From the NCBI GenBank assembly GCA_963827275.1, contig CAWHAA010000005.1, positions 689,474-753,473 of the forward strand: a stretch of DNA of 64,000 nt, in the 5' to 3' direction. The translations under genes were made by a program, and so were the position numbers. The stretch comes from an uncultured Spirochaetota bacterium. GTDB lineage: Bacteria > Spirochaetota > UBA4802 > UBA5550. Position 1 is the stretch's first letter, and each line of letters opens with the position of its first letter. Of the stretch, positions 3,786-61,266 are shown piece after piece. Below the pieces are notes generated by a model. The model did not search any database. It was not told the DNA's origin and saw nothing but the letters and a program-made list of their open reading frames with translations.

Positions 3786-3817
3786 TTGACACGATGACAT
3801 GTATGTCATTTTATACT
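3786..3817 (+). promoter_or_regulatory. Palindromic candidate operator in the promoter region of the FGGY-lyase operon
   Basis: ATGACAT-GT-ATGTCAT inverted repeat at 3794-3809 between TTGACA (3786) and TATACT (3812); the 20-bp spacing is non-ideal. Confidence 0.55.
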
Positions 3818-3881
3818 TAATCGGGCCGGGCGTATCACACTCACCGCATCACCATTCCCCGCCGGCACAACAGGGGGCGCT

Positions 3882-36928: not shown

Positions 36929-36946
36929 GGCGGGCCGCGCCGCGCG

Positions 36947-40331: not shown

Positions 40332-41426
40332 TCATTTCGCTGCGCCTCCCGTCCTGATGACATGCACCGACGTGGCCTTGAAGGAGGCGGTGAGGGCGAG
40401 CCCTTCGCGGATGCCCATCTCCTCCACGGAGCGGTTGGTGACATACGCCACCAGGGTAAACCCGCAGTCGAGGTATACTTTCCGGAAGAAACCGGCCGGC
40501 ACCGTTCTGGTGACCGTGCCCGGAAACGCGTTCCGCGCGCTCGACTCGGGACGGTTCAGCGAAAGGACGATATTCTCGGGATGCACGCAGAAGGTCACGG
40601 CGCCGCCCGGGACCTCGTCGCCGGCCGCCTCGACCGGGACGCCCTGCACCGACACGGTGAAGGTGCCGCCGCCCGAGCCGGTGACGGTCCCCGCGAGCAC
40701 GGTCTCGGCGCCCATGAAGGACGCGACGAACTCGCTGGCCGGGTACTGCGTGATCTCGCCCGGCGCGCCCGCCTGCACGATCGCGCCCCCGTTCATCACG
40801 AGGATCTGGTCCGCGAGGCGGAGCGCCTCGCCCCGGTCATGGGTGGTGAACAGGGCGGTGATCCCGCGCGCCCTGATGATGCGCTCGAGGTCGGCGATCA
40901 GCGACTCGCGGGTCGGCGCGTCAAGCGAGGAGAACGGCTCGTCCATGAGGAGGAGCTCGGGGCCCGCCGCGAGCGCCCGCGCCAGGTTGACGCGCTGTGC
41001 CTCGCCGCCGGAGAGCGCCCCGGCGTGCCGCTTCGCCAGGTGGGTTATTTTCAGAAGGCGCAGGCTCTCTTCCACCGCCGCTCGCGTCTCCTTCGTTCCC
41101 ATCCCCCGCAACCTCGGGCCGGAGGCAATGTTGTTATACACCGACGCGCTGAACAGGAGCGGCTCCTGGAACACCAGCGCCATCCTTCTCCGCAGCAGGT
41201 GGATTGATTTCCCGGGAAGGATTTTTTCCCCCCGGTACAGGACCTCTCCCGCGTCGGGCCGCACCAGGCGCATGAGCGAGAGGAGGAGCGTTGATTTGCC
41301 CGCGCCGTTGGGCCCGATGATTGAAACGATCCGCCCCTCCCCGATTTCAAGCGACGGGACGTCCAGGGCCGGCATGCCGTTCCTGACGACGAGCAGGCCG
41401 CGGACCTCTACCAGGGGCGCGCTCAT
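40332..41426 (-). CDS. tupC: Tungstate ABC transporter ATP-binding protein with TOBE domains
   Basis: GPNGAGKS, LSGGEAQR, LLLMDEPF, C-terminal SARN...FKATSV; downstream of tupAB. Confidence 0.85.
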   Translation of the reverse strand: MSAPLVEVRGLLVVRNGMPALDVPSLEIGEGRIVSIIGPNGAGKSTLLLSLMRLVRPDAGEVLYRGEKILPGKSIHLLRRRMALVFQEPLLFSASVYNNIASGPRLRGMGTKETRAAVEESLRLLKITHLAKRHAGALSGGEAQRVNLARALAAGPELLLMDEPFSSLDAPTRESLIADLERIIRARGITALFTTHDRGEALRLADQILVMNGGAIVQAGAPGEITQYPASEFVASFMGAETVLAGTVTGSGGGTFTVSVQGVPVEAAGDEVPGGAVTFCVHPENIVLSLNRPESSARNAFPGTVTRTVPAGFFRKVYLDCGFTLVAYVTNRSVEEMGIREGLALTASFKATSVHVIRTGGAAK

Positions 41427-42118
41427 TTCCCCCTCCGCTGCTGCACCGCGGTCAGGACATAGTTGACCGCGAAGGCCAGCACCAGCAGGATAACGCCCAG
41501 GGCGATCGCCACGTCGAAGCTGCCCCTTCCCGTCTCCATCACCGTCGCGGTGGTCAGCACGCGGGTGTAGCCTTTTATATTTCCCCCCACCATGATCGAC
41601 GCGCCGACCTCGGAGATGACGCCGCCGAAGCCGGCCATGACCGCGGTGAGCAGGGGCAGGCGCGCCTCCTTCATGAGGAGCCATACCATCTGCCGCCGCG
41701 TGGCGCCCAGCGCCAGTATCTGGAGGCGGAGCTTGCCCGGCAGGCGCTGCATCGCCGCGAGCGAGACCCCGGTGATGATGGGCGCCGCGATCACGGTCTG
41801 CGCGAGCACCATGGCCGCCGGCGTATAGAGGAGCCCGAGCGAGCCGAGGGGCCCGCTCCGCCAGATGAAGATGGTCACGAAAAGCCCCACCACGACCGGG
41901 GGAAGCCCCATGCCCGTGTTGACCATGCTGATGACGAAGCGCCTGCCGGGGAAGCGCGTGAGCGCGACCGCCGTGCCGGCGCCCACGCCGATAACGGTGC
42001 TGACCAGCGTCGCCGCCCCGGATATCTTGAGGGTGAGGAGCGTGACCTCCATGACCTCCCGGTCCCCGGAGGCGAGCAGCCGAAACGCCTCGATGATGCC
42101 GTTGAATATGAGTTCCAT
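41423..42118 (-). CDS. tupB: Tungstate ABC transporter permease
   Basis: MGLPPVVVGL, GPLGSLGLLYTP, ISEVGASIMVGGNI, TRVLTTA. Confidence 0.92.
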   Translation of the reverse strand: MELIFNGIIEAFRLLASGDREVMEVTLLTLKISGAATLVSTVIGVGAGTAVALTRFPGRRFVISMVNTGMGLPPVVVGLFVTIFIWRSGPLGSLGLLYTPAAMVLAQTVIAAPIITGVSLAAMQRLPGKLRLQILALGATRRQMVWLLMKEARLPLLTAVMAGFGGVISEVGASIMVGGNIKGYTRVLTTATVMETGRGSFDVAIALGVILLVLAFAVNYVLTAVQQRRGK

Positions 42119-42136
42119 TAATACATCCTGTTACGA

Positions 42137-42221
42137 CCCCCCTGTCCCCCGGAGGGGGCACGAGGGGAACGTTCCTTCACGCCCCCTTCGGGACGCCCCC
42201 CTGTCCCCCGCAGGGGGCACG
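42137..42221. repeat. Two direct copies of a GC-rich hairpin (REP-like) between tupA and tupB
   Basis: CCCCCCTGTCCCCCG(G/C)AGGGGGCACG at 42137 and 42196. Confidence 0.8.
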
Positions 42222-42253
42222 CGGGATGGGCGCCTCCGAACAGGGAAGGAGGC

Positions 42254-43078
42254 TTACTTCAGCGCGTCCGGGAAAAAAAGCACCGCGCCGTATTTTTTTA
42301 TCCCGAAGTCCTTTATCATCTTCTGCGTATCGGCGGCCACCCAGAAATCGGCGAATGCCTTTCCCCCCGCCGCGTTGGTCTTCGGAAATTTTTTCGCGTT
42401 CACTTCTATGACATGGTAGATGTTCAGGAGTGCCCCGTCGCCTTCGACGAGCACCGCGACGTCAATTTTGTTCTTCCGCGACAGGTAGGTCGCGCGGTCG
42501 CAAAGGGTGTAGCCTTTTTTTTCAACGACCACGGCCAGCGTCTGGCCCATACCGAGCCCGGTCTGCTGGTACCATTGTTCCCGTTCCGGGTCAAGCCCCG
42601 CCTTCTTCCAGAGCTTCAGCTCCATCACGTGGGTGCCAGACCGGTCGCCCCGGGAAATGAAGAGCGATTTCGATGCCGCGATCTTTTTGAACGCCCCGGT
42701 TGCGGTTTTGAGGCCCCTGATCTTCGCCGGATCGTCCTTCGGTCCCAGTATCACGAAATCGTTATGCATGACGATTCGCCGGTTCACGCCGAAGCCCTTT
42801 TTGATGAACTTCTCTTCAGCGTCCTTCGAATGCACAAGGAGAACGTCCGCCTCGCCCCGCTCGCCCATCGCCATGGCCTGGCCGGAGCCCACCGCGATCG
42901 TCTTGACCCGGTACCCGCTCTTTTTCTCGAACACGGGTATCAGCACGTCCAGCAGTCCCGTGTCCTGGGTGCTGGTGGTGGTGGCGAAGATGATGTCCTT
43001 CTGCTTCGCGTCGGCCTGGTGTGCGGCCAGGACCGCAAAAACAAGCACCGATAACAATCGGATTGTCATGTGGAACAT
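42254..43078 (-). CDS. tupA: Tungstate-binding protein TupA
   Basis: Signature ATTTS-TQDTGLL, AVGSGQA, SRGDRSGTH, GLGMGQTL. Confidence 0.95.
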   Translation of the reverse strand: MFHMTIRLLSVLVFAVLAAHQADAKQKDIIFATTTSTQDTGLLDVLIPVFEKKSGYRVKTIAVGSGQAMAMGERGEADVLLVHSKDAEEKFIKKGFGVNRRIVMHNDFVILGPKDDPAKIRGLKTATGAFKKIAASKSLFISRGDRSGTHVMELKLWKKAGLDPEREQWYQQTGLGMGQTLAVVVEKKGYTLCDRATYLSRKNKIDVAVLVEGDGALLNIYHVIEVNAKKFPKTNAAGGKAFADFWVAADTQKMIKDFGIKKYGAVLFFPDALK

Positions 43079-43269
43079 AGGTTACTCCTTATAATAATAT
43101 ACAAAGGATTAACGGGATCATTATTATCAAGCAGATCCTGCAAATCCAGTCAAAATACTGCCAGTATCAAGCATATAGGGATTTCGCCGTACAGATTTTT
43201 TTGCATTTTTTTACTTTTTAAGACTTTTTATTCTTGTAAGAATATTGGTCTATTAAAAAATCTTATAAT

Positions 43270-43330
43270 ATTACAAAATGTTACTATTTTTATCTAATTC
43301 CTTGACTGCCGGAAATAGCGTGCATACCAT
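43270..43330 (+). promoter_or_regulatory. Sigma70 promoter with phased RTTAC direct repeats upstream
   Basis: ATTAC 43270, GTTAC 43280, then TTGACT (43302)-17bp-TACCAT (43325). Confidence 0.65.
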
Positions 43331-43410
43331 AACTTTTCAAGAGCGATAATCGTATTAAAACCGGCAAAACAACATGGATATTATTTTAATGTTTTTTATG
43401 GTACTCCATC

Positions 43411-44098
43411 ATGATATATATCGGCCTTGATGACACAGATACGCTGAAATCACGGGGCACGGGGCGCCTTGCCAGAAACATCGCGACGATGCTCTCGTCG
43501 GATTTTACCGCTGCTCGGAGTGGTGCGCCATCAGCTCCTTCAGGATCCGCGTGTTCCCTTCACCAGCCACAACAGCAGCGCCACCATACTGCTGAATGAA
43601 AAATGCGATACTGACATTAATATATTATTCAAGAGAGTGAAGGCCCTGATGCTGGCCGATTTCCAGGTCGGCAGCGACCCCGGCCTGTGCGTGACGCGCG
43701 AGATACCGGACGCGGTCATTGAACACGGGCGCAATGCCCAGCAGAGGATCGTCACGCAGGCCGAGGCAAGGGAGCTCGCCCGGGAGCATGACATCGCCCT
43801 GGAAGGCCTTGGCGGCACCGAAGACGGCGTCATCGGCGCGCTGGCGTCGGTGGGCCTCACCGCGACCGGCAATGACGGGCGCTATCTCCTGACAGGCAGG
43901 GTGCGCGACCTGACAGGGCTCCTCCCGGTTGAGGCGGTGCTCGACGCGGGGGTGACGGAGGTGCGCACGATGGAGGGAGCGGCGGTCGCCTCGGGCATGG
44001 TGCTGTCGGACAAGATCAGGCCGGCGCGCCGCGGGGGCGCGCCCGTGGCCTATGTCGAATGGCGCGACGACCACTGGGAGCCGCTGAAGCTGAATTGA
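43411..44098 (+). CDS. TiaS N-terminal/Mmp11-like domain protein (frameshift near 43510)
   Basis: IYIGLDDTD..GTG, RHQLLQDPRVPFTSHNSS, SDPGLCV, GVIGALA; lacks the TiaS OB and Zn-ribbon domains. Confidence 0.65.
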
Positions 44099-44108
44099 GA
44101 TACACGGC

Positions 44109-45524
44109 ATGGTACAGATAAACGACCTAACCTACGCCTACCCCCAGAACGGCAGGGGGATCGGGCCCTACTCCTTCTCGGTGAAGACCGGGGAGATGCT
44201 GCACATCACCGGCACCTCCGGCTGCGGCAAGAGCACGCTGGCGCGCTGCATCACCGGGCTCATCCCCCACATATACACCGGAACGATGCGGGGGCGGGTC
44301 CGTGTCGGCGGTCATACAACAGAGGAGACCCCGCTCTGGAAGCTCTCGCGGACAGCGGGGTTCGTTTTCCAGAACCCGTCAATGCAGATGCTGGGCAACA
44401 GCATCGAGGAAGAGATACTCATCGGGCTGGAAAACCTCGGCCTTGACCGGGACGCGATGCGGGACCGGATGGAAGAGGCCCTCGGGCATTTCGGCCTCGG
44501 CGCGCTGCGCGGCAGGCGCCCCCAGACCCTTTCAGGCGGCGAGCAGCAGAAACTGGCGCTGGCGTCCATACTCGCGCGCCGGCCGCCGGTGCTGGTGCTG
44601 GACGAGCCTCTTTCAATGCTTGACGTTGTCGCTGCGTCGGAGCTCGCCGACCACCTGTCGGAGCTCGCGCGCGCCGGGGTGACCGTCATCGTGTTCGAAC
44701 ACCGGGCCGACTACCTTGCGGGAATCCCCGGGATACGCGTGATGCGCCTTGACCAGGCGACAGCGTCCGAACATGCATTCTTTCCTGCCCCGGGAAGGAT
44801 CGCGCCCGGACACGCCGCGGGAACGCGGCTCGACGTATCGGGCCTTGGCGTCAGGGCGGCCGGTAAAGAGCTGCTGAAAAACCTCAGCTTTTCGATTGAT
44901 CCGGGCGTCATCACCGCGGTGGTCGGCAGGAACGGGTGCGGAAAGACCACCATGCTCCGCGCGCTGGCCGGCCTGCAGAAACACGACGGGAGCGTGGCCG
45001 TTAACGGCAGGCGGCCGGACTTCGGCCAGGTCTATCAGAACGCCGACCTCCAGCTTTTCAACGCGTCAGTCCGCAGCGAGATACTCTACCGCGTGAAGGA
45101 CCCGGACATGACCCTCTACGCGTGGCTCCTGGAGACCCTGCGGCTCAAGCAGTACGAGAACACGCCGCCGCTCATACTGAGCGAGGGCGAGAAAAAGCGC
45201 GTGGCCCTGGCCGCGGTGCTGATGCACAACCCGGCCGACGGGATACTCCTTGATGAGCCGTCGCTGGGACAGGACATTGCCCACAAAACGATGCTCATGG
45301 AGATCTGCCGCGGCCTGGCGGCCCGGGGGAAGATCATAGTCATGACCACGCATGAACTGCATCTCGCGGCCATGGCGGACCGGCTGCTGCTCCTCGGCCC
45401 GGACGGCATCGCCGCCGACGGTACGCCGGAGAGGGTATTTCTCGACCGCGCCGCGTGGGAGCGGGCGGGGATGTTCGTTCCCGGCTGGATCGCGCCTCCC
45501 GGCGAGGAAGGCATCACGGCATGA
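44109..45524 (+). CDS. ECF transporter ATPase (fused A-A')
   Basis: Two ABC domains: GTSGCGKS/LSGGEQQK/LDEP and GRNGCGKT/LSEGEKKR/LDEP; FVFQNP Q-loop. Confidence 0.88.
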   Translation: MVQINDLTYAYPQNGRGIGPYSFSVKTGEMLHITGTSGCGKSTLARCITGLIPHIYTGTMRGRVRVGGHTTEETPLWKLSRTAGFVFQNPSMQMLGNSIEEEILIGLENLGLDRDAMRDRMEEALGHFGLGALRGRRPQTLSGGEQQKLALASILARRPPVLVLDEPLSMLDVVAASELADHLSELARAGVTVIVFEHRADYLAGIPGIRVMRLDQATASEHAFFPAPGRIAPGHAAGTRLDVSGLGVRAAGKELLKNLSFSIDPGVITAVVGRNGCGKTTMLRALAGLQKHDGSVAVNGRRPDFGQVYQNADLQLFNASVRSEILYRVKDPDMTLYAWLLETLRLKQYENTPPLILSEGEKKRVALAAVLMHNPADGILLDEPSLGQDIAHKTMLMEICRGLAARGKIIVMTTHELHLAAMADRLLLLGPDGIAADGTPERVFLDRAAWERAGMFVPGWIAPPGEEGITA

Positions 45525-46250
45525 TCGGCGGCTCCACCTACGGCATGACCGGCGCCATCGCGCTCGCGGAGGCTTCGCCCCTGCGCAGGGCGGACCCGCG
45601 CACCAAGCTGGCAATCTGCCTGTGCGCGTCGCTCGCCGTGATGCTCCCCCTTGAAAAGCTTGTTGCCTTTTTCCTCGTATATAGTATATTTATTACATGG
45701 GCGCGTCTTCTCCCTGAGGCGGTCCGGCAGGTCTGGAAGCTCAAATGGATACTGGGCGTGCTCTTCCTGGTTGACTGGATCGTGGTGTCGCCGGAGCTCG
45801 CCGTGGCCGTGACACTCAGGCTGGTGCTGATGGCCGGGGTATTCGCCATGTTCTTTTCCACGACCACGCCGTCCGAGTTGTGCTGCGCCCTGGTATGGCT
45901 GCGCGTGCCGTACCGTTACGCGTTCAGCATCGGCCTCTCCTTCCAGGCCGTGGGCAGCATCGACGATGAATGGCGCGGCATACTGGAGGCGCAGAGGGCC
46001 CGCGGCGCGTTCACGGCTCCTTCCGGGTGGCGCTACCTGACCGCAAAGGTACGGAACCTGGTATGCGCTCACCGTGCCGGCGGTGGTCCTCGCCGCGCGC
46101 CGGGCCTGGGCCATGACCGAGGCGGCGTACGCGCGCGGCTTCGATTCGCCGGACCGGAGCTCATACTCCCGGCTTTCCATGGGGGCGATCGACTGGCTCA
46201 TCATCGCCGGGGCATGCGTCATCGCCGCGGCATTAATATTGTGGAGGTAA
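45521..46250 (+). CDS. ECF transporter T component (CbiQ-like; frameshift near 46065)
   Basis: ADPRTKL, TTTPSEL, AQRARG and AYARGF (two ARG motifs). Confidence 0.85.
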
Positions 46251-46254
46251 CGAC

Positions 46255-46764
46255 ATGGGTACATCGCGTCGCATTCTTATCTCAGCAGGAATCATCATTC
46301 TGGCCGTTGTGACGATACTCGTCATCGATTCATTCCGCCGGGGCGGCGGTCTGTACCGCGCCCTGCACGAGGGAAAGGAAAAGTTTACCGCTGCATGCGT
46401 TCCGGTTTATTCAGGAGCGGCGCAGCCGGCCAGCTTCTGCGAGGCGGACGCGGCGAAGCTCGCTATAAAAAGCTTTGTGGACAAGGATGAGAACAAGAAG
46501 CAGGAAGGATGGCTCCTCCGCGACGTGGTGCTTCTCTCCGTCAAGAAGGAGAGCCTGAAGCCTGAAACACGGGTCCTGGTAGCAAGCTCAAGCCGCAACA
46601 AGAAGGCCGAACTGACCTGGAAGGACGTGTCCGACGAATCGAACATGGTCATCCTGGCGCCCACCAAGCAGGGCAGCCTGAAGCTCGCGTCGGCAATGAA
46701 GGGCCTCGATACCCGCGAGCAATGGGTCCAGGACGTTGACCGGATCGAGATCGTCCGTCAATGA
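46255..46764 (+). CDS. Membrane-anchored protein with molybdopterin-binding-oxidoreductase-like fold
   Basis: N-terminal TM; GWLLRDVV, VILA...G.LKL and C-terminal WVQDVDRIEI resemble the WVKWVxxIEV end of sulfite-oxidase-fold domains. Confidence 0.5.
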   Translation: MGTSRRILISAGIIILAVVTILVIDSFRRGGGLYRALHEGKEKFTAACVPVYSGAAQPASFCEADAAKLAIKSFVDKDENKKQEGWLLRDVVLLSVKKESLKPETRVLVASSSRNKKAELTWKDVSDESNMVILAPTKQGSLKLASAMKGLDTREQWVQDVDRIEIVRQ

Positions 46765-47307
46765 CCGAGCGCTACTTCTCCACGTTCCAGCTCTTCCTGC
46801 TCGCCCTCTTCGCGGCGCTCATCGTCGTGGCGAAGATCGCTCTGCACCTTCCCCTCCAGCTCTCCGGTCACTCCGGGATCTTCTGGATGGCGGTGATCAT
46901 CGTCGCCGCGCGGGTGGTGCCGAAGCGGGGCGCGGCAAGCCTGGTGGGGCTTACGTCGGGCATCATGGCCGCGTTCCTGGGCCTCGGCGACCTGGGCGGC
47001 CTGAACACCCTCTTGTCCTACACGATGGCGGGCGTCGGCGCGGACCTCGGACTGCTCCTCCTCCGCGACCCTGAAAACTACGCGTGCGCGGCGCTTGCCG
47101 GCACGTTCGGCCACCTGTGCAAGTTCATGGTGAAGTGGGCCTTCGGCATGATGTCGGGCGCACCGGTGGGGTTCGTCGCCCTCGGCCTCGCCAAGGCACT
47201 TGTCGGCTATCATCATCTTCGGCGCGCTGGGCGGCTTTTTAGGGGCCCTGACCCTCAGGGCGCTCAGGCGGGCGGGGTTTTTCACCTATTTGATGGAGAA
47301 AAAGTAA
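46761..47307 (+). CDS. ECF transporter substrate-specific S component (frameshift near 47210)
   Basis: About 180 aa, ~6 TM helices, ALFAAL, LSGHSGIFW, PKRGAASLVGL; same operon as the A and T components. Confidence 0.75.
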
Positions 47308-47403
47308 ATATCCGCATCAATCTCATCATATAGCAAATTGTCTTCATTGCTCAATTCGTTGAAATACAAAGGCAAAGTCTTCTCAAAAAATCAACCATAA
47401 AAA

Positions 47404-47559
47404 TGTCCGCCTGCAGGGCGGACAAACATATCGGGCGTCTGTCTGAAATCGAATCCCGCGAAGCGGGTTCGATGAGTTACGCCCGTAGCCAGTCGCGGCA
47501 CTTGAGCGACCGGGATGGGGGAGCGCGAGGGGGAAGGACGGAGTGTCCTTCACCCTCGC
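47404..47559. repeat. Multi-hairpin intergenic element (REP/MITE-like or ncRNA)
   Basis: Stems TGTCCGCC/GGCGGACA; CGGGCGT/ACGCCCG enclosing TCGAATCCCGC-GAA-GCGGGTTCGA; GTCGC/GCGAC; GCGAGGG.GAAGGAC/GTCCTTC.CCCTCGC. Confidence 0.65.
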
Positions 47560-47560
47560 C

Positions 47561-50068: not shown

Positions 50069-50094
50069 ACTGCAGACTTTTTCCGCTGCTTCGC

Positions 50095-51453
50095 TTAAGG
50101 AGCCACAAACAGACTGCCCGATTGCAGTTGCCAGTAACCATCGAAAGTGACTGATAACGGATTCGCACCGGAGTTTATTGTCAATGTCGAGGCCGTGCTG
50201 GTATATCCCACGCCATTATAAAGAATATACCGGTCATACCTGCCGTCAATATTGGTGCCAGTTCTATAATCATAGAATACAAGCACATAGTAAGAACCGG
50301 GAATTATATCCGCTACATCAATGGTGGCTGTACCGCCCGTTGTGGTGACAGGGCTCCCCGAAACGCCGGTGTAAATCGGCATGTACTGGTTGCGGGTTCC
50401 CGTCCCCAGCACACTGTATAAATACACACATATGTTCATGGTCCCCCGGTTCGCATCGTCAGGAGGAATAGGGCCATTATAGGTTGCACTCACGGAAAGA
50501 GTTCCACTTTCTGCCGTCGTAAGATAGGCTGCATCAGTCTGTAATACGCTTGTATCACCGAAGGTAATATCCGGCAATGTCATGTCTGCATTTACTACTA
50601 TGAATTGTTGCGCGTTCGCCCCATAGGGCGTGCCGGCAAAAAAAGTATACGGATCGTTCTCACTGTCGGGAGCAGTACCCTTGACTGAATCATAGAAAAC
50701 CAGAGCGTAATAACTCCCCGCCAGTACACCGTTCACGGGAATCGTATATTCAGTGCCGGGCGTTATTTCTGCCGTTGTGGAGGCAGAATTAATGGGTAAT
50801 GCCGGATTGGTCGTCGAAGTGCCCGGTGTCGAAGTATTGTAGAGATACACATAAATCCTCTTGCTGGCCTCGGATTCCGGCAAAGCTGCGGTGCCGGTAT
50901 ACGTGGCGTTAACTGTTACTGTATACGTAGTTGTTGACATAAAATAACTTTGAGTAAGAAGCACATTAGCATCAGTAAATGTTATTCCGCTCAATGTCAC
51001 ATCGCCGCTGATATTCACCTTTGAAGCAGAGGTTGTGTATGGGGTATTAGTGTACAGGACATAGGGATCGGTTTGATTGGCTTTATTTTCATTGTCGCCC
51101 CCATTAAGATCAAAGAAAACAAGAACAGAATAGTCGCCATCGCAGATACCGTTAATTGTAATACTGCTCAATCCCCCACTAACGATCGGGTCGGTCGTCG
51201 ATCCTCTATATACCGGCGCCGGGTCCCTGGTAGTGAGGCCAAGACTCCTGTATAAATACACATACATCTTGCCAGTTCCCACCGGTGTACCGGTTAGCGT
51301 TGTTGAGCCGGTATAGGTCGCCGTCACGGTCAGGGATGACTCGCCCTGACATTGTTGGAGAAAAAGCAGCGGATTGATCTCGTTGCTCTGTTCCTTGCAG
51401 GATGCGGCAAATAATATTATTCCAATGCACGCCAGTTGTATGATCTTTTTCAT
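50095..51453 (-). CDS. Surface lipoprotein with three tandem ~140-aa beta-rich repeats
   Basis: Lipobox FAASC; three copies of ATY.G...VYLY...G.Y..LVF.D...D.Y; AT-richer than neighbours. Confidence 0.82.
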   Translation of the reverse strand: MKKIIQLACIGIILFAASCKEQSNEINPLLFLQQCQGESSLTVTATYTGSTTLTGTPVGTGKMYVYLYRSLGLTTRDPAPVYRGSTTDPIVSGGLSSITINGICDGDYSVLVFFDLNGGDNENKANQTDPYVLYTNTPYTTSASKVNISGDVTLSGITFTDANVLLTQSYFMSTTTYTVTVNATYTGTAALPESEASKRIYVYLYNTSTPGTSTTNPALPINSASTTAEITPGTEYTIPVNGVLAGSYYALVFYDSVKGTAPDSENDPYTFFAGTPYGANAQQFIVVNADMTLPDITFGDTSVLQTDAAYLTTAESGTLSVSATYNGPIPPDDANRGTMNICVYLYSVLGTGTRNQYMPIYTGVSGSPVTTTGGTATIDVADIIPGSYYVLVFYDYRTGTNIDGRYDRYILYNGVGYTSTASTLTINSGANPLSVTFDGYWQLQSGSLFVAP

Positions 51454-51570
51454 TCCAGCCTCCATTTTATATCATTACAGAGTAAAACTGTAATAATTTC
51501 ACTTTATGTCAATGATAAATTGTAGCTATTAGTTAACAAATAGCTGTATTTATATCTATATTTTTTTATT

Positions 51571-51628
51571 TTCACTATTAATTACATTTAGTTACTAATT
51601 GTTACAAATTATTACAATTTTCTTGACA
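51571..51628 (+). promoter_or_regulatory. Phased 10-bp direct repeats abutting a -35 box
   Basis: ttcactatta/ATTACattta/GTTACtaatt/GTTACaaatt/ATTACaattt then TTGACA at 51623; a well-spaced -10 is not obvious. Confidence 0.7.
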
Positions 51629-51722
51629 AATTAATTCCATAAATAATGTTTTACATATGTTTAATATAACATAATTGGCCGGCTTTTATCAGCCATTATG
51701 CCTATGATCTTGTGGAGGATTT

Positions 51723-54197
51723 ATGAGAAAATTCATTATCGGTATCATTGCATTGTCTGCAGCGGCCGTGATCGGCGCCATGCCGGTCTCGGCGCAGGAG
51801 AAAAAGGGGGCTGAAGTGAAAGACCAGCCCGCAGCGGAGCAGGAGCAACAGCAGCCCGCTGAAGAAAAAAAGGACGTTACGGCACAGAAGTCTGACGTCT
51901 ATACCATCGGCGAGATCGTCATCCGCGAAAAGGCGATCGCCAACGTGGAGGACGCCGCCACGACGACCGAGCTTACGCCGGAAAGCCTGAAGGCGCGCTC
52001 CGCGCATACGCTGGACCAGGCGCTCGAGACAGTGCCGGGCATGATCGTGAAGCAGGGACAGAAGGGCCAGATGAACTTTGACATGCGCGGGTTCAGGCAC
52101 AACACGCTCGCCATCCTCGTGGACGGCCTCCCGTTCGAGGAGGTGTATGACGGCGGCGGGGGCGACATCTCCCGGATCCTGGTCATGAACGCGTCGAAAG
52201 TCGTCGTGAACCGGGGCACCTCGTCCGCGCTGTACGGCTCGCGCGGCGCCTTCGGCTCCATCAACGTGGTCACGAAAAAGCCGGAGCGCCTGAACTTCAA
52301 GGGCGGCGTCGAGGTCGACCAGTACGGCGGGTTCACCGTGAACGCATCGGGCGGCGCGGCATACAAGAATTTTTATTTCTGGCTCTCCGCCGCGGTCATG
52401 AAAAACAACAGCTACGAGATATCGAACCAGCTCGGAAGATCGAAAGCGCTCCGGTGGATGAACCGGCTTCATCCCCTGGTACGTGTACGGACATGACCAG
52501 CGGATCATACACGCCGGCAATCGACCATATTCACGGCGATGGGAATGGAATATATCCTCGACGACGACAGGTGGAACCACACCAATTCCATGAAATACTA
52601 CGCGTCGGGCAAGGCCGGGTACACGGTCAACGACAATATCGAGTTCGGCCTGTCCGCCTCATACTACCAGGGCGAGATGAACTTCAACGGGTTTGAGATC
52701 AGCAGCTACTCGTCATACGTCCTGGACGGGACCTGGGACGATCCCCGGAACAGCGAACATGTTCCAGAACCGCGCCTGGACACTGGCCCAAGGATTACCG
52801 GGTCAACGTGGCCCCCTACCTCACCCTCGAATTCGGCGACTTCTACATGAAGGCCATGTATTACTTCACCAGACAGGCGAACGTCCTCGAGGGATGGACG
52901 AACCAGGCGCAGTCAGCCATGTTCGACAGGGGCAAGATGTCCGAGCACGACGAGACAAGCAACGGCTTTTACATTTATCCCTCGTATAAATTCGCGCCGT
53001 GGAACAAGCTGAACGCGCTCGATCCACTACCGCATCGACCAGTTTTTAGAAATATAAAAAACGCCTTGCGCCCGTACGCGTCCGGCACCGCCAACTGGTA
53101 TACGCCCTGGTTCAAGACGGCCGAGATGTCGGCAAAGTACGTCGATGTCGCGCTGGAGGATGAATTCAAATTCAACACGCCGGCGGGCGACCTGCGTTTT
53201 CCCTCGGCATCTCGTATGACGCGCAGAAGCTGTCGACAAACCGGGGCGGCCGCTACAACATCAACGGCGACGAGGACATCACCGGGCTCCTTCGCTCGAC
53301 CGCATGAAACCGGAGAACACCTCCCTGATATGGGGCACCGGCGACGGGTTCAACCCGGTCTTCGCGCTGGTGTACGAGCCGGTCAAGGACATGCTGAAGA
53401 TCAGGGGCACCTTGTCGCAGAAGATCAAAGTTCCCGACCCTGCACGAGTACGCGGATTCCTCCGACTATATCGACGAATACTTCATGAGCGATCCCGGCG
53501 CTGCTGCCGCTGGTGATCAAGCTGAACCAGATCAAGCCGGAAACATCGTACAACGCCAACGCGGGATTCGAGCTCGACCTCCTCGACAAGAGCCCTGAAC
53601 CTGAGAGGGCGATTATTTCTACGCCTTCTATAAAAACAAGATCGAGAGCGTCTCCGACCCGAATGCCGCGGTGGGCAACCAGACACGCTATACGAACATC
53701 AAGGGGCGGGAGGTACACGGCGTGGAGAGCCACGTCGGCGCCACGATAGGCAAAAACCTGCTGAAAATCCTCGACATGAAGCCCTCCGCGACCTACGTAT
53801 TCACCGCACGCGCGCGACTGGTACGACGCGCCGGTGGTGAAGGGGGCGAAGGTCGCAGGAGACCCCGGCCCACCAGCTGATACTCCAGCTGAAGCTGGAT
53901 TTCATATCGGGAACGGGCCTCAACCTCTGGACAACGCCACCTTCAACCAGATGATGTACGTGCAGCAGATACCGACGACGCATACTCGGCGTCCGGTCTC
54001 TCGTACTTCCACGCAGGTGTACACGACCAAGAAACTCCACGATCCCTTCATGTTCAACATCACGGATATCGCAGCGGATCGTGGACCACTTTGAGCTCTG
54101 GGTGATGTGCAAGAACATGCTCGACGACTACAATGCCGACCCCTTCAACCCGGGTCCCGGCAGGACCTGGTATTTCGGCGGGGACGCGGAGTTTTAA
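51723..54197 (+). CDS. TonB-dependent receptor 2, paralog of receptor 1, with many frameshifts after ~52480 (errors or pseudogene)
   Basis: GGAGG RBS, GEIVIRE, LETVPG, MRGF, ILVDGLP, SALYG, IKPETSYN, NMLDDYNADPFNPGPG..GGDAEF*. Confidence 0.82.
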
Positions 54198-54212
54198 TCC
54201 TTGACAAAGCAG

Positions 54213-54247
54213 ACCGCGTGGGGCGACATGCCTCCACGCGGTTTTTT
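54213..54247 (+). terminator. Intrinsic terminator after receptor 2
   Basis: ACCGCGTGGGGC..GCCTCCACGCGGT followed by a T-run. Confidence 0.8.
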
Positions 54248-54289
54248 CATCACGCACCACTATCTGACAATTCATTGACAGGTACAATC

Positions 54290-55358
54290 ATGAAACAAGT
54301 CACTATGCATACTAACCTACCGCCCTTGCTGCTCTCATGCGTTGTCCCCTTCACCGGCTGCGGGCAGAAGATCACCGAGATCATGACGGTCACCGGGGCG
54401 ACGCCGCTCGCGCTGCAGGAATCCGTGCCTTCCGGCAGGTCGCTCACTATCACCGGACTGGTCAAAAAGGAATATGATCTTTCTTCGTACACGCTGAACA
54501 AGTTCGCGACGACCCGCATCCGCACCAGGGAAGTTTCCGCCGGCAGGGGAATTCGAGGGGGCATATGTGTATACCGGCATCCCGCTCTACAACATACTCG
54601 AAGGGAGTGTCGCCGCAGAAGCCGAAAAGCGCCGTCTTCGACAGGCCGCTTGACATCCTTGTCACGTTCCATGCCGCTTCCGGGAAAACGTCACGGTTCA
54701 GCTACTGGCGAGCTGATCATGACCGACGACCGCCATCCCTTCACGCTCGCGTTCCACCGCCGGCAGGTGCTCCCGCATAAAAACCCGGAACAATACACGA
54801 AAAACAGATATAAAGACAATATCCAGGGGCTCAGGCTCATCTGCCCGCGCGACCCGGACACCTCGCGCTACCTTGATGACGTGACGAAGATAACCTTTTC
54901 AGTGTTTAAGACGCCGGACGACATCCTCCCCGTTACGAAGAAAGGAAAGAAATGCTCGTCAGACGGAATAACGGTCATCCGCGGCGGCACCGCAGGGCCG
55001 GCTTCGTTCGTGAACGTCGCCAGGTCAAAGGCAGCCGGCTGGGTGCGCATCGGCCACGGCCAGGGGTTCAAGGGGATATCGGGGGCGGAGGGATACGAGC
55101 CTCCGTTCATTCCTTAAAAAAAACTTCAGGGATTGCGGTCCTGACAGCTTCTTTATCTTCGTCGCCTGCGACGGGTACCGCGCCCTCTTCTCCGGCCGCG
55201 AGATATTCCTCTCCGGCGACGGGGCGTCATACATGATCGTTGACTCGCTTGACGGGAAGAAGGCGACCGGCAACTACATGCTCGCGCCGGTGGACGACTA
55301 TTTCGTGGACCGCGACGTGTGGGGGCTCACCCACGTCGTCATGCTCGACGTAAAGTGA
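54290..55358 (+). CDS. Putative lipoprotein with tandem molybdopterin-binding-oxidoreductase-like domains (about 3-4 frameshifts)
   Basis: FTGC lipobox-like; YTGIPLYNILE, RFSYGEL, LRLICPRD..RYLDDV; second domain ACDGYRALFSGREIF, DYFVDRDVWGL. Confidence 0.6.
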
Positions 55359-55365
55359 GGGGGCC

Positions 55366-56112
55366 ATGTTCACGACCAACAACCACCTGTATCTCTATGT
55401 CGCGGTCGGCATGTTTGCCGTCTCCCTCGCCCTCTGCCTGGCCAGGGCGCGGTCGGCCGGGTTGACCGCGTTCCTTCCCGGCCTGGCCCTCTATTCCCTC
55501 TACCTCGCCGGCAGGGCATGGATCGCCGGGACCTTCATTCCGAACCCGGTGATTGAGGGGCCCTACCTGCTCCCCTGGTGCCTCGGCGTCATCGCGCTGC
55601 TCATGATCGCGCGGCGCGACGGCCGCTGGTGGTACGTCCTTGTCCCGCTCCTGGTCTTCTCAGGGTTCGCGCTCTATTACGCGAGGGGGATCATCCCCCC
55701 GACGCCGAACAAGCTGACGCCGTGGATCATCGCATTTTTCGTCCCGGAGGTGTTCGCGCACGCCTGCTTCTACTGCGGCGCGGTGTTCGCCGCGTTCCTC
55801 CTCGCCGGACGCGAGCGGGCTGAAACCTTCCACCGGTTCATGGTGTGGGGCTTCGTGCTCTACTCCGTGGCCCAGGTGACCGGCGCGGTATGGTGCTACC
55901 TTGGCTGGGGCAACACCTTCCAGTGGGGGCCCCGTCACATGAGCTCCGCCGCGGTCTGGCTCATCTGTGCCGCCTATATCCACCTGAAATACATCCCCGG
56001 CTGGAACGGCAGGCGCCGGGCCTGGTTCGCGATCGCCGCCGCGGTCGTGGTGCTCGCGGTGACGAGCAATTCTTACCTGCGCGAAATGAACTTTCCCCGG
56101 ATCGGAGGCTGA
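55366..56112 (+). CDS. CcsA/ResC-like membrane protein (heme-handling family)
   Basis: Multi-TM; GAVWCYLGWGNTFQWGPRH in the position of the WWD motif; AHACF and YIHLK histidines. Confidence 0.75.
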   Translation: MFTTNNHLYLYVAVGMFAVSLALCLARARSAGLTAFLPGLALYSLYLAGRAWIAGTFIPNPVIEGPYLLPWCLGVIALLMIARRDGRWWYVLVPLLVFSGFALYYARGIIPPTPNKLTPWIIAFFVPEVFAHACFYCGAVFAAFLLAGRERAETFHRFMVWGFVLYSVAQVTGAVWCYLGWGNTFQWGPRHMSSAAVWLICAAYIHLKYIPGWNGRRRAWFAIAAAVVVLAVTSNSYLREMNFPRIGG

Positions 56113-56113
56113 C

Positions 56114-56971
56114 ATGATACGAAAACTCTGGAATGTAATCGGCGATATCAGGCTCTCCTTCTGGCTGCTCCTTGCCGCAGCGGCCCTGTTTTTCACCGGG
56201 TCCTTATATACATCACTCGATTTTTCCTATTTCAAAGCGATGAACGAGCTCAGGATACAGGACTGGCTGTCCCGGGAATTGCCGGCCCGTCCCGGCGCCA
56301 ACTGGTGGCTGGTCCCGCTTTTTGCCGTTCTGTTCCTCCTCGGGGTGAATACCGTCATCTGTACGCTGAATCGCGTCATCGCGCTCTTTTCAGCACGCAC
56401 GAAAACCGACTACCGGTTCGTACTAGCGCTCCTCCCCTCGGTGGTCCACCTCCTCTTCATCACGGTCATGCTCGGTCACGCGGTGACCATAACGATGGGG
56501 TCCTGGAACAGGCTCCCCCTGGCCGAAGGGGCCGTGCTGCAGATCGACCCGTCAGTCCCTCCCCTGACCGTGGGCACAATCAAGGACGAATTCTTCCAGG
56601 AAGGATCATTCCTCGCGAACAGGATCAGGCAGACCACGGTCCCGCTTGCCGGCGCCGGCGACGAGATACGGCTCTCCTACCTCGATTCCATCAAATATCA
56701 TGGATACCGACTCCACCTCGACATGGTGAAGAAAAAAACCCCCGGCAATCATGAAAACCGGCACGCGCAGATGGCCGACAGCAAGGAGACCTGCAACAGG
56801 TCGGAAACATTCCGGTCGGGTAAGCGAACGCGGGAGCCGGCGCAGGAGCTTTACCTCCTTGCCATTGCAGACCCGGGCCTCCCGGTAATCCTTGCCTCAT
56901 TTTCGCTCATTCTTGTCATAATGACCTGGTATTTCATAGAATCAATGCGGCGTCGCGACCGGGAAGCATGA
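56114..56971 (+). CDS. CcsB/ResB-like membrane protein
   Basis: IRLSFWLL, LGVNTVICTLNR, VVHLLF..LGH, periplasmic domain, C-terminal DPGLPVI plus TM. Confidence 0.7.
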   Translation: MIRKLWNVIGDIRLSFWLLLAAAALFFTGSLYTSLDFSYFKAMNELRIQDWLSRELPARPGANWWLVPLFAVLFLLGVNTVICTLNRVIALFSARTKTDYRFVLALLPSVVHLLFITVMLGHAVTITMGSWNRLPLAEGAVLQIDPSVPPLTVGTIKDEFFQEGSFLANRIRQTTVPLAGAGDEIRLSYLDSIKYHGYRLHLDMVKKKTPGNHENRHAQMADSKETCNRSETFRSGKRTREPAQELYLLAIADPGLPVILASFSLILVIMTWYFIESMRRRDREA

Positions 56972-57007
56972 GCAGGGATACGGTTTTATCATGGCGCATT
57001 TTATGAG

Positions 57008-57036
57008 TTGAAAAAAATACTCGTTGTTTGTATATT
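57008..57036 (+). promoter_or_regulatory. Sigma70 promoter for mop and the regulator
   Basis: TTGAAA-17bp-TATATT, a GTTAC at 57038, and AAGGAGG RBS downstream. Confidence 0.6.
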
Positions 57037-57067
57037 TGTTACATCTCTAAATTAAGGAGGTGCGGCA

Positions 57068-57277
57068 ATGAAAATCAGCGCCCGTAACGTGATCAAGGGA
57101 ACGATAACAAAGATCGTCCAGGGCTCGGTGAACAACGAGGTATACATCGGGCTCCCGGGCGGGAACGAGATCGTTTCCATAATAACAAAGACTTCGGCGA
57201 AAACGCTCGGCCTCAAGAAAGGCAAGCAGGTGTACGCGGTCGTCAAGGCCTCGAACGTGATGATCGCGGTTGACTGA
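57068..57277 (+). CDS. mop: Molbindin (Mop/TOBE molybdate-tungstate-binding protein)
   Basis: MKISARNVIKG...SIITKTS..LGL..GKQVYAVVKASNVM; 69 aa. Confidence 0.93.
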   Translation: MKISARNVIKGTITKIVQGSVNNEVYIGLPGGNEIVSIITKTSAKTLGLKKGKQVYAVVKASNVMIAVD

Positions 57278-57279
57278 CC

Positions 57280-58185
57280 ATGCCTGAAGAATTCATGAGC
57301 ACCAAAGAAGTGGCGGAGTACCTGGGGATAAACGAGAAGCAGGTCTATGCCCTCATCAAGGCCGGGAAAATGCCCTGCACCAGGGTCACCGGGAAATGGG
57401 TGTTCCCGAAAAACATCATCGACGAATGGATCAACAAGAACGCCAGGGGCAGCCTCAAGCCGGTCGCGACAAGCGATCGTGACCCGGGCCGCATCCTGGC
57501 GGCGGGGAGCAACGACCCGGTCCTTGACCTCCTGATAAGCCAGAATTATGACAATGTCAATATCTTCTCCTGCAATACGGGGAGCACCGAGGGCCTCCGC
57601 CTCCTGTCCGAATCCAGGGCCGATATCGCCTGGTGCCATCTTTTTGACCCCGAAACAGGGACATACAACATACCCTACATCGAGTCGCACTTCGCGGACC
57701 GGAAGGTCGCGATGGTCCACCTGTTTTACCGGGAGATCGGGCTCCTTGTCGCGCCCGACCATGTAAAAAGAATAAAGAAGCTCCAGGATATTTCGTCCGG
57801 TATACGGTTCATCAACCGCCAGAAGGGATCGGGCATCCGGCTGTTCCTGGATTACCACCTGAAAAAAGCCGGCATCGATCCCGCGTCGATCACCGGGTAT
57901 GATAGCGAGGTGTACACCCACTTCGAGATAGGGCTGTCAATCCTTGCCGGCAAGGCGGACGCGGGGATTTCCTCCGTGGCGATCTCAAAGCTCATGGGGA
58001 TCCCCTTTGTGCCCCTGGCCAGGGAGAGCTTCGACATGGTGCTCGGCAAGGACACCTTCTTCGAGAAGGGGATCCAGGCCTTCATCGAGACACTCCAGTC
58101 GAAAAAATTCAGGAAGACCGTGGAGCCGCTCGGCGATTACAGCTTTTCAGATTCGGGGAAAATACTCTATTCAACGGCGGGGTGA
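57280..58185 (+). CDS. Excisionase-like HTH plus PBP-domain transcription factor (TaoR-like Mo/W regulator)
   Basis: MSTKEVAEYL..KQVYALIKAGKMP..GKWVFP; AGSND, GSTEGL, FINRQKGSGIR, YTHFEI. Confidence 0.85.
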   Translation: MPEEFMSTKEVAEYLGINEKQVYALIKAGKMPCTRVTGKWVFPKNIIDEWINKNARGSLKPVATSDRDPGRILAAGSNDPVLDLLISQNYDNVNIFSCNTGSTEGLRLLSESRADIAWCHLFDPETGTYNIPYIESHFADRKVAMVHLFYREIGLLVAPDHVKRIKKLQDISSGIRFINRQKGSGIRLFLDYHLKKAGIDPASITGYDSEVYTHFEIGLSILAGKADAGISSVAISKLMGIPFVPLARESFDMVLGKDTFFEKGIQAFIETLQSKKFRKTVEPLGDYSFSDSGKILYSTAG

Positions 58186-59279: not shown

Positions 59280-59310
59280 GCCCCGATCCTGGCCCCCGGC
59301 GCTTTCACGG

Positions 59311-59829
59311 TCACCGGCCTCTTTCCCGGCTCTCGCCGCGGCGGATATACTTCATGAACACCTTCCCGGTTTTTACGTCCATCAGGATCTTGCGGGCGGT
59401 GTCTCCTCCCACCTTCATTTCAACAATCGGGATGTCTTCCATCTCGATCAGGGCCCGCGCGAGGCGCACGTTGTCCATCGGGATAGTGCTGGAATCGAGG
59501 GCGGTGTATATGACGTGACCGCCCCCGAAGATCTTGGCCACCAGGTCCCTGCGGACAGCGCCCCGCCGCTCCATCATCCCCAGCAGATCGGTTATCGCGC
59601 TGACGCCATACCGGGCCGACCCCGCGCTGAAAAGATCGTTCTTCACCATCCTTCCCGGGAGCATGAAATGGTTCATTCCCGAAATGCGGCGTACCGGGTC
59701 GTGCAGGCACACCGCCACGCATGACCCGAGCAGGGTGCCTATCATCTCGTCCTGGTCGGAAACGTGGTACTCGCCCGGCTGGATGATCGTGATATGCTTG
59801 TCAAATTGCCTTCTGTGCGGTATGTGCAT
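59311..59829 (-). CDS. cheD: Chemoreceptor glutamine deamidase CheD (copy 1)
   Basis: TLLGSCVAVCL, GMNHFMLP, ARYG, AKIFGGG. Confidence 0.92.
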   Translation of the reverse strand: MHIPHRRQFDKHITIIQPGEYHVSDQDEMIGTLLGSCVAVCLHDPVRRISGMNHFMLPGRMVKNDLFSAGSARYGVSAITDLLGMMERRGAVRRDLVAKIFGGGHVIYTALDSSTIPMDNVRLARALIEMEDIPIVEMKVGGDTARKILMDVKTGKVFMKYIRRGESRERGR

Positions 59830-59830
59830 G

Positions 59831-61263: not shown

Positions 61264-61266
61264 GCG

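Follow-up and report, generated by a model that had tools for sequence, protein, structure and literature searches.

The window analysed here is a stretch of 64,000 nucleotides from an uncultured Spirochaetota bacterium (assembly GCA_963827275.1, contig CAWHAA010000005.1), and the element in question is a block of about 16 genes at positions 40332-58185. The block contains tupABC, an operon for an energy-coupling factor (ECF) transporter, two TonB-dependent receptors (TBDR1 and TBDR2), a repeat lipoprotein, an exported protein called x in the following, a CcsA/ResB-like pair, mop and a regulator. An earlier interpretation made from the letters of this DNA (the sequence-only reading) had listed these elements, and each of them is confirmed at its place. 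It had also noted that no molybdenum/tungsten (Mo/W) enzyme and no gene for synthesis of the molybdenum cofactor (Moco) lies inside the block, and none was found between 40332 and 58185. The block is probably a regulon for the acquisition of tungsten (or molybdenum), in which two TonB-energised outer-membrane routes are added beside TupABC.

The tup genes are on the minus strand. The product of tupC (40332-41426) is an ABC ATPase with a C-terminal TOBE domain (PF00005, E 4.6e-32; PF03459, E 2.3e-10); its orthologues are 63-68% identical and adjoin tupB/tupA in relatives. The permease gene tupB (41423-42118), a membrane open reading frame (ORF) of 231 amino acids (aa), shares 79-88% identity with the gene that relatives have between tupA and tupC. 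A putative periplasmic tungstate-binding protein is encoded by tupA (42254-43078), with a signal peptide and a match to PF12849 (PBP_like_2, E 1.6e-48). Its top NCBIfam match is NF041772 TupA (E 1.5e-72, 258 of 266 positions), at 244 bits, below the cut-off of 400 bits, and its stretch ATTTST is presumably the TTTS motif of TupA proteins.

On the plus strand follows a gene for a cytoplasmic enzyme (43411-44098) that resembles the TCKD domain of TiaS and methanogenesis marker 11 (TIGR03280, E 7.4e-8; NF040849, E 0.0017), here called TiaS-like. The A, T and S components of the ECF transporter are encoded together behind it, also on the plus strand: a fused A-A ATPase (44109-45524) with two ABC_tran domains (TIGR04520 ECF_ATPase_1, E 6.4e-81, 271.7 bits, below the cut-off of 315 bits), the T component (45455-46250; PF02361 CbiQ, E 8.3e-10, 39 bits vs. 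25) and the S component (46761-47300; PF09819 ABC_cobalt, E 3.7e-8, 34 bits vs. a cut-off of 25.2). The S component is 93% identical to its orthologue in the relative G007 over 150 aa, with the tail in a different frame. Between T and S is orf169 (46255-46764, plus strand), a protein of 169 aa with an N-terminal membrane anchor and one predicted periplasmic domain of PruR/sulfite-oxidase fold. ECF transporters lack an extracytoplasmic binding protein, whereas such a periplasmic domain is encoded here within the operon; orf169 is always between ecfT and ecfS in relatives, and we infer that it serves the ECF transporter.

The intact receptor TBDR1 (835 aa; 47561-50068, minus strand; Plug, E 4.5e-22) has as its partner a lipoprotein (50095-51465, minus strand) with a lipobox and three repeats of ~140 aa, both read in the translation, and a weak match to DUF2141 (E 1.2e-5). 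The remaining genes are on the plus strand. TBDR2 (51723-54197; Plug, E 4.6e-19), with interrupted frame, ends in GGDAEF and is followed by x (54290-55358), of which the window copy reads '...FTGCGQKITEIMTVTGATPLAL'. Then come a CcsA-like membrane protein (55366-56112; PF01578, E 4e-10, 40 bits vs. 29.9; TIGR03144, E 1.8e-14, below cut-off) and a short membrane protein of 285 aa (56114-56971), labelled ResB-like from its position and topology. The gene mop (57068-57277) is of the molbindin type (69 aa; Mop/TOBE assigned by eye from the translation), and copies 67-80% identical precede the regulator in G014, G008, G013 and G037.

The regulator (57280-58185) combines an excisionase-type HTH_17 domain (PF12728, E 5.7e-14) with a PBP_like domain (PF12727, E 2.6e-59), the latter also matched by NF011068 (E 2.1e-61). 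Such a pair, encoded beside W/Mo transport genes and with oxyanion binding as a prediction, corresponds to the TunR type. It is not the architecture of TaoR, the family named in the sequence-only reading.

A full HMMER pass over 1.84 billion representatives yields 234 relatives of x at E<=0.001. They occur in two sizes, ~350 aa and ~590 aa, of which the longer carries a fused tetrapyrrole-methylase-fold domain. The family alignment has 66 members, eight orthologues from the loci and 58 from 150 listed matches, with only lengths of ~320-400 aa included. With it, the x orthologue of G014 is modelled by AlphaFold2 with a predicted local distance difference test (pLDDT) score of 94.2. In Foldseek searches against the PDB, the model matches the Moco domains of SoxC, SorA, sulfite dehydrogenases, sulfite oxidase, nitrate reductase and YedY, and also the periplasmic pterin-binding PruR proteins (TM-target 0.59-0.65). 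As modelled, x is a tandem of two sulfite-oxidase/PruR-like domains. The family PF00174 is matched by 21 of the 66 members and not by x of the window itself. The model of orf169, from nine orthologues (pLDDT 77.5), has a helix at 3-30 (one transmembrane helix) and then a beta domain, with PruR 7kom as top Foldseek match (TM-target 0.66) and sulfite oxidases thereafter. In these comparisons of x and orf169, a Foldseek probability of 1.00 is reached with 2xts, 2c9x, 1sox and 1xdq, all with the Moco-binding fold. The presence of two exported pterin-fold proteins, already proposed in the sequence-only reading, is thus borne out.

The N-termini of the x family are lipoprotein or Sec-type signals (a pair of arginines occurs in only two of 66), and no invariant cysteine is present among the columns of either the 20- or the 66-sequence alignment; x is therefore not expected to be a Moco enzyme exported by twin-arginine translocation (Tat). 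Another feature is found at the N-terminus. The target motif of ApbE is given as [S/T]GA[S/T] (PMC8238504). This motif occurs directly behind the signal peptide in 19 of the 66 members, with 14 of the 20 closest among them, and only once in the remaining 17,103 residues. In the window, x carries TVTGAT after the lipobox, and the host genome encodes ApbE (265 bits). Covalent flavin mononucleotide (FMN), attached by ApbE, is thus probably carried by x, and motif and Sec export together suggest a periplasmic redox or release step. The motif does not occur in the sequence of orf169.

The fused gene of the relatives, x-like with methylase, was not found in the host genome with the query used. Proteins with the corrin/tetrapyrrole-methylase fold (PF00590) and N-terminal signal peptides do occur. 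A stand-alone one (299 aa) is at G000 C5:360321-361220, outside the window, next to an FmdE-like gene, a second mod/wtp-type ABC transporter and formate dehydrogenase genes. Fusions of ~590 aa, with PF00590 behind an x-like double SUOX domain, are found at L016:3066-4829, L031:13203-14969, L020:291-2111, L079:5153-6919 and L072:4429-6231. Since an exported methylase fold has no access to S-adenosylmethionine (SAM), these proteins are probably not methyltransferases.

The orthologues of TBDR1 in the genus are 54-79% identical. TBDR1 aligns with TIGR01786 over residues 100-725 (the Plug and the long barrel region), and its long alignments to models of TonB receptor subfamilies are all below the cut-offs. 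In TBDR2, the long barrel after the Plug is seen only via the intact orthologue. In canonical CcsA, the WWD domain is flanked by two periplasmic histidines. In the CcsA-like protein, residues W176, W181, W187, H191 and H206 are conserved in 40 orthologues; the conserved columns do not include the aspartate of WWD, nor is there a conserved histidine ahead of the motif. The ResB-like protein, without any Pfam or NCBIfam match, has H116, H126 and C87 invariant in 34 orthologues, and its gene always comes directly after the CcsA-like gene in relatives.

By tblastn with 20 proteins of the window, the modules of the block are found linked in the loci of 13 relatives as well, so that the arrangement is not a matter of chance. 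The set TBDR2-x-ccsA-resB is divergent from tupABC in G016, G010, G001, G008 and G013, and it is followed by mop and the regulator in G014, G008, G013 and G037. The ECF module adjoins tupABC in G007 and G011. TBDR1 with the repeat lipoprotein is adjacent to the regulator in eight genomes, and the lipoprotein is next to TBDR1 in G014, G010, G001, G015, G007, G011, G003 and G020. Orthologues of the regulator adjoin TBDR1, tup or mop in 12 of the 13. In G008 and G013, exbB, exbD and tonB complete the TBDR2 operon; these three genes are also present in an operon of G020, and in none of the positions of the window block. The modules are shuffled yet co-located, which points to function rather than to inheritance of one arrangement.

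In a scan with the 20-sequence alignment over one genome per species, x was confirmed at 117 places, of which 80 loci were kept. By record title, used for all taxon labels of loci, 41 of the 80 are from Spirochaetota; the other 39 are from Desulfobacterota, Acidobacteriota, Aminicenantes, 'Clostridia', Fibrobacteraceae, Omnitrophota, Bacteroidetes, Krumholzibacteriia and others. Neighbours within 10 kb were labelled by the best phmmer match at E<=1e-5. The counts are lower bounds, because many contigs are short, and the gene calls in foreign loci are greedy longest ORFs in which the antisense strand is sometimes picked. In the spirochaete loci, a receptor is found in 36, ccsA/resB in 35 and one of tupA, tupB, mop or TunR in 21; for the 39 others the numbers are 18, 7 and 4. 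The genes exbB/exbD/tonB are within the operon in 14 of 80. Further recurrent neighbours are Peripla_BP_2 with FecCD and an ABC ATPase (11 loci), DUF364, a fusion of radical-SAM and binding protein, and a class I methyltransferase. Judged by this gene context, the W/Mo link of the island genes is real.

Among the carriers, Desulfosarcina alkanivorans PL12 (locus L088) is in culture and completely sequenced. Its locus has exbBD-receptor-x-ccsA-resB and then FecCD-ABC-DUF364; the ResB-like gene is separated from the latter genes by a group II intron domain (RF00029, 55.7 bits; L088:12648-12720, minus strand). In a metagenome-assembled genome of Desulfosarcina, a thiamin pyrophosphate (TPP) riboswitch (69 bits) at L080:16079-16187 is a few kb downstream of receptor-x-FecCD and before another ABC ATPase gene. 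In L110 and L125 (Acidobacteriota), several PBP_like/TunR-like genes surround receptor-x and no riboswitch is found; ORFs of 649 aa (TunR-like) and 564 aa (TupA-like) in L125 suggest fusions.

The Moco RNA of Rfam (RF01055), at the gathering threshold, gives 16 matches in 15 loci. In 14 loci, one of which is G037 of the window's own order, it is on the same strand and directly before receptor-x or x. L121 has the series riboswitch-receptor-x-tupA-tupB-tupC. In L113, L115, L117 and L120, the riboswitch precedes x alone (with housekeeping flanks in L113, L115 and L120), and in L085 it is adjacent but divergent. Two riboswitches occur in L126, at 630-756 (before a 541-aa aldehyde-dehydrogenase-like gene and x) and at 3782-3906 (after x and before the receptor); both are without the P3 stem. 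The P3 stem is absent from all 16 matches. Moco RNAs without P3 have been linked to organisms with the tungsten cofactor (Regulski 2008, PMC2408646). The word TonB is absent from the main text of that paper, whose supplementary gene lists might name such receptors.

A second riboswitch model, built from the first four receptor-x loci (with three phylum labels) found by Rfam at gathering, was run on 95 sources, namely the window, 20 loci of relatives and 74 of the 80 x loci (the six others are duplicates). Rfam confirmation of its matches brought the total to the 16 given above; two weak ones, in L072 (36 bits) and L059 (E 0.26), fell short of the gathering threshold of Rfam and are left out of the count. 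In the window, no Moco riboswitch is found, either with RF01055 at E<=1 over 30000-64000 or with the locus-built model. No cobalamin riboswitch is present in the window or in 30 loci scanned.

The divergent promoters of the window carry direct repeats RTTACAA with a spacing of three bases, beside -35-like boxes TTGACA/TTGACT. Between tupA and the TiaS-like gene, the operator-like repeat reads ATTACAA-aat-GTTACTA, then TTGACT (43268-43310); between the lipoprotein and TBDR2, GTTACAA-att-ATTACAA abuts a TTGACA box (51597-51625). The latter arrangement of repeat and -35 box is seen also in L013, L017, L019, L025 and L026. RTTACAA is found 20 times in the 7.2 kb that make up the island promoter regions of the genus, compared with seven times in 15.9 kb of promoter-facing intergenic DNA elsewhere in these loci. 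This k-mer search is exploratory, as AT-rich promoters share many words, and only RTTACAA near -35 boxes looked consistent. We infer that the TunR-type regulator binds these repeats.

The TiaS-like enzyme is not TiaS proper. The tRNA-Ile2 agmatinylcytidine synthetase TiaS consists of TCKD, FLD, OB and zinc-ribbon domains in full length, and the TiaS-like enzyme does not have this make-up: in a protein of 228 aa, NF040849 is matched over positions 2-152 of 422 only (E 1.6e-4), with 20 bits against the equivalog cut-off of 600 bits. The intact orthologue of G007 matches PF22641 (E 0.0048) and TIGR03280 (E 2.4e-13). In Spirochaetota, the gene is present in 17 of 401 genomes, all in the family of the window. 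In other genera of that family, it occurs with TBDR1, the lipoprotein, exbBD-tonB and a FecCD-type importer, with a TunR-type regulator adjacent, and the binding protein beside it in G020 matches MolA (HI_1472, PDB 3psa, E 5.7e-28).

In Desulfobacterota, 20 of 301 genomes have the gene, and 19 loci were examined. It comes last in tupA-tupA-tupB-tupC operons (L177, L178), after FecCD-ABC-MolA-like genes (L193-L195), after receptor and ECF genes (L181, L183, with L188 nearby), behind a Moco-type RNA (L189) or near tup/mod/TunR genes (L179, L185, L186, L187, L191). No W/Mo partner is seen in three loci (L180, L182, L190), and in L192 the gene is beside methylase-fold genes. The gene keeps company with importers of three unrelated kinds, and two of these kinds are known to move the bare oxyanion; the simplest explanation is that the enzyme acts on the imported metal.

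With these elements, the following scheme can be proposed. In one route, TBDR1 and the surface lipoprotein would pass cargo to orf169 and the ECF transporter, and the TiaS-like enzyme, using ATP, would act on the imported metal in the cytoplasm. In the other, TBDR2 would bring into the periplasm a W/Mo species excluded by porins (a chelate, a thio- or poly-anion, or the trace oxyanion); x would bind and process it, most likely in a redox or release step, for which the CcsA/ResB-like pair, with its candidate haem-ligand histidines, may supply electrons; and the freed oxyanion would be captured by TupA. Inward carriage of the product could thus be by TupABC, the ECF transporter or MolBCA-like importers. 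Mop and the TunR-type regulator would switch the whole set, probably via the RTTACAA repeats, with a riboswitch of the tungsten-cofactor type in place of the regulator in other lineages.

The nature of the cargo depends also on what the carriers can make for themselves. The host has three genes of the aldehyde ferredoxin oxidoreductase (AOR) family, eight matches to Mo/W enzymes with bis-pyranopterin guanine dinucleotide (in four, a TGA stands in frame, as known from selenocysteine enzymes), and also MoaC and MoeA. In 50 of the 80 x loci, picked without regard to the result, the carrier genomes have MoaC in 49 and AOR-N in 48, with up to 20 matches per genome. AOR-N is found in 106 of 401 genomes of the Spirochaetota sample, a contrast inflated by kinship. 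With MoaC in 49 and AOR in 48 of 50 carriers, the cargo is more likely a W/Mo species than an intact metal-pterin.

The latter cargo is the core of the sequence-only reading, in which receptors, PruR-like carriers and the ECF transporter import an intact W- or Mo-pterin or a precursor, such as molybdopterin (MPT) or cyclic pyranopterin monophosphate (cPMP), from neighbouring anaerobes, and the TiaS-like enzyme re-activates it. We retain this possibility, which we consider unlikely, because the fold of x and orf169 binds pterin or Moco and because riboswitches for a cofactor classically guard the importers of that cofactor. The ligand of this fold is Moco in sulfite oxidases and a free pterin in PruR (PMC11194511); as x is exported unfolded, its ligand must be met in the periplasm; ECF transporters typically carry vitamins; and the carriers belong, by record title, to uncultured lineages of anaerobes, where oxygen-labile pterins could survive. 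A cofactor riboswitch before an uptake system, here in 14 loci, is the established pattern for B12, TPP and FMN.

On the other hand, with MoaC in almost every carrier and MoeA also in the host, none needs salvage, so that the auxotrophy expected in that reading (a host without moaA, moaC or moeA) is not found. The TiaS-like gene travels inside tupABC and MolBCA-like operons, movers of the bare oxyanion, which speaks against its proposed role in activating a cofactor, and in L121 tupABC is joined directly to receptor-x. Molybdate pumps, too, are under the control of Moco riboswitches (PMC2408646), and PruR is described as lacking the deep cleft needed for Moco (PMC11194511). A version with a relay, in which the intact W-/Mo-pterin or MPT/cPMP is passed between x and orf169, moved by the ECF transporter and re-activated by an ATP-dependent TiaS-like step while a flavin on x keeps the dithiolene-pterin reduced, appears equally doubtful, if not slightly more so. 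If true, the molybdenum/tungsten cofactor would have its first uptake pathway. Of the second route once proposed, W/Mo-tied and TonB-dependent routes beyond TupABC are supported by linkage (the modules keep together in the 13 relatives), by the riboswitches, by the operons with the TiaS-like gene in another phylum and by the fold of both exported proteins; the intact metal-pterin as cargo and the logic of salvage are not.

Another question concerns the integrity of the genes. The assembly interrupts the reading frames of five of the ~16, namely the TiaS-like gene, ecfT, ecfS, TBDR2 and x. In TBDR2, a TGA stands in frame at 52494 besides several frame changes, and a stretch of frameshifts covers 52400-54700. 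The frame changes near 43490-43512 in the TiaS-like gene, near 47200 in ecfS and near 55100 in x; in ecfT, tblastn with the intact T component of G007 splits at 46063/46065. The shifts are outside long homopolymers. These genes could be true pseudogenes in a decaying remnant where only TupABC and TBDR1 work, a view that we regard as improbable. Their orthologues are intact in relatives (that of TBDR2 in G014 has 834 aa). No public run contained more than 0.18 of the sampled words, and the frames were addressed via contigs of related strains only. The region 51700-55400 was compared with contigs of four public runs from four studies. A contig of 22.9 kb from one run covers it with 200 mismatches and 43 gaps; identical single-base differences recur in the contigs of three to four runs from different studies, and the neighbouring 54800-55400 is ~99% identical in two of the same runs.

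The housekeeping gene carA (35843-36970) changes frame twice within ~100 bases (36690-36800), where its GATase domain switches frame and then returns, which points to local errors of the consensus. Two of 17 conserved genes tested outside the island by comparison with relatives are also split, and the ribonucleotide reductase gene is one of them. This gene, of class II type (PF02867 and TSCPD in the G014 orthologue), is split over three frames at G000 C5:763653-766000. Among the three AOR genes, one is in two pieces (G000 C5:436182-436764). Since the contigs of the runs differ consistently from the consensus, carA is broken and two of 17 conserved genes are split, errors of assembly rather than decay are suggested.

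A last alternative, that receptors, x, CcsA/ResB and ECF transporter are an iron, haem or corrinoid locus merely beside tungsten genes, would fit the haem/transferrin and siderophore subfamilies as top receptor-model matches of TBDR1, the haem handling of the CcsA family, the FecCD/Peripla_BP_2 importers and DUF364 beside x in other phyla and the corrin-type methylase-fold genes of relatives, but it is very improbable, as the receptor matches are all far below cut-offs, 16 Moco riboswitches were matched and none for cobalamin in the window and the 30 loci scanned, the linkage of tup/mop/TunR persists through rearrangements across genera, the FecCD-type importer by the TiaS-like gene has a MolA-like binding protein and the methylase-fold proteins, with their signal peptides, are unlikely to be SAM-dependent tetrapyrrole methylases.

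There are several points that weigh against W/Mo acquisition by TonB-energised routes. The five interrupted frames are one. The CcsA family handles haem, and the top receptor-model matches of TBDR1 are haem/transferrin subfamilies, though all below cut-off. Known ECF transporters carry vitamins or Co/Ni, and none is known to carry oxyanions, and the fold modelled for x and orf169 is a pterin/Moco-binding one, not known to bind oxyanions. Of the relatives of x, 47 of 66 are without the strict flavinylation motif, and genes assigned to the corrin-type methylase fold are found in the islands of relatives. Outside Spirochaetota, only four of the 39 x loci have tup/mop/TunR within 10 kb; kin are not independent, so that the spirochaete counts overstate the support; and a Moco match is absent in seven Desulfobacterota loci (and in four others).

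One known system close to the island is TupABC of Desulfovibrio under a TunR-type regulator. The island has the same tupA, tupB and tupC (with TOBE ATPase), the HTH_17 and PBP_like regulator and mop, but the known system is without an outer-membrane step or periplasmic and cytoplasmic helpers, and the island adds ~11 genes. With BtuB-BtuF-BtuCD and the siderophore and haem systems, it shares an energised receptor, a periplasmic carrier, an inner-membrane importer and riboswitch repression by the end product. It differs from the BtuB-type systems by the W/Mo regulon, by the sulfite-oxidase fold in the periplasm instead of the class III binding-protein fold, and by the inner-membrane partner, which varies (TupABC, MolBCA-like, ECF). 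MolBC-A (HI1470-1472), a type II importer, serves Haemophilus influenzae for molybdate/tungstate. Similarly, a FecCD-type importer and a MolA-like binding protein accompany the TiaS-like gene and TBDR1-type receptors in G020 and in Desulfobacterota; the window has the ECF transporter there, and MolBC-A is without receptor, TiaS-like enzyme or sulfite-oxidase-fold partner.

Like MsrPQ (YedYZ), x is a periplasmic sulfite-oxidase-fold protein encoded with a histidine-conserving membrane partner. MsrP is exported by Tat with Moco, whereas x is a Sec lipoprotein with predicted covalent FMN, and its membrane partner is CcsA/ResB-like, not MsrQ-like. The enzymes of the SUOX family share with x the Moco-binding fold; Tat export and an invariant cysteine are lacking in x. 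In comparison with System II CcsBA, the 285-aa protein is without the large periplasmic domain of ResB/CcsB. The PruR proteins of Agrobacterium (PDB 7kou, 7rkb, 7kom, 7kp2) are likewise exported without a Tat signal, and in that sense non-catalytic, and have a degenerate sulfite-oxidase fold. In structure, orf169 and either half of x have PruR as their best match or close to it. PruR is described as a single soluble domain encoded with the cyclic di-GMP enzyme DcpA and with a signalling role (PMC11194511). Measured by that definition, x and orf169 fall outside the family, x being a tandem lipoprotein with a flavinylation motif and orf169 membrane-anchored, both with transport genes as neighbours instead of DcpA. 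The motif after the signal peptide and ApbE in the genome are as in the ApbE-flavinylated extracytosolic proteins (Meheust et al. 2021, PMC8238504), and the words molybdopterin, Oxidored_molyb, CcsA and ResB are absent from the main text of that paper. In the literature searched, with many subscription papers beyond reach, no description of TonB-linked W/Mo uptake was found, in agreement with the sequence-only reading, which knew of no characterised system of this kind.

The block is flanked upstream by carA, DUF6279 and FecR-like genes and downstream by a che cluster. Upstream of tupC, the minus strand between 36947 and 40076 holds the DUF6279 gene, the FecR-like gene (PF04773, E 3.6e-17) and a 319-aa ORF without family match, a relative of which is near tupC in G011; a sigma factor was not identified among these genes. 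The che cluster (58167-61779, minus strand) reads cheB, cheD, cheR, cheD, cheW, with two CheD paralogues flanking cheR.

In current accounts, as far as the literature searched goes, tungstate and molybdate enter the periplasm without help, and active transport is limited to the inner membrane (ModABC, TupABC, WtpABC, MolBC-A). A receptor route under a tungsten-cofactor riboswitch or tungstate-type regulators would, if true, mean that anaerobes actively compete for trace tungsten. It would explain the supply of metal to AOR-rich organisms in sulfidic habitats, where tungsten is scarce or otherwise bound. It would also give roles to the tandem sulfite-oxidase-fold lipoprotein, a bacterial TiaS-kinase-like enzyme, the short CcsA/ResB-like pair and the exported corrin-methylase-fold proteins, and the ECF transporter would be the first candidate for one that works with an external binding domain.

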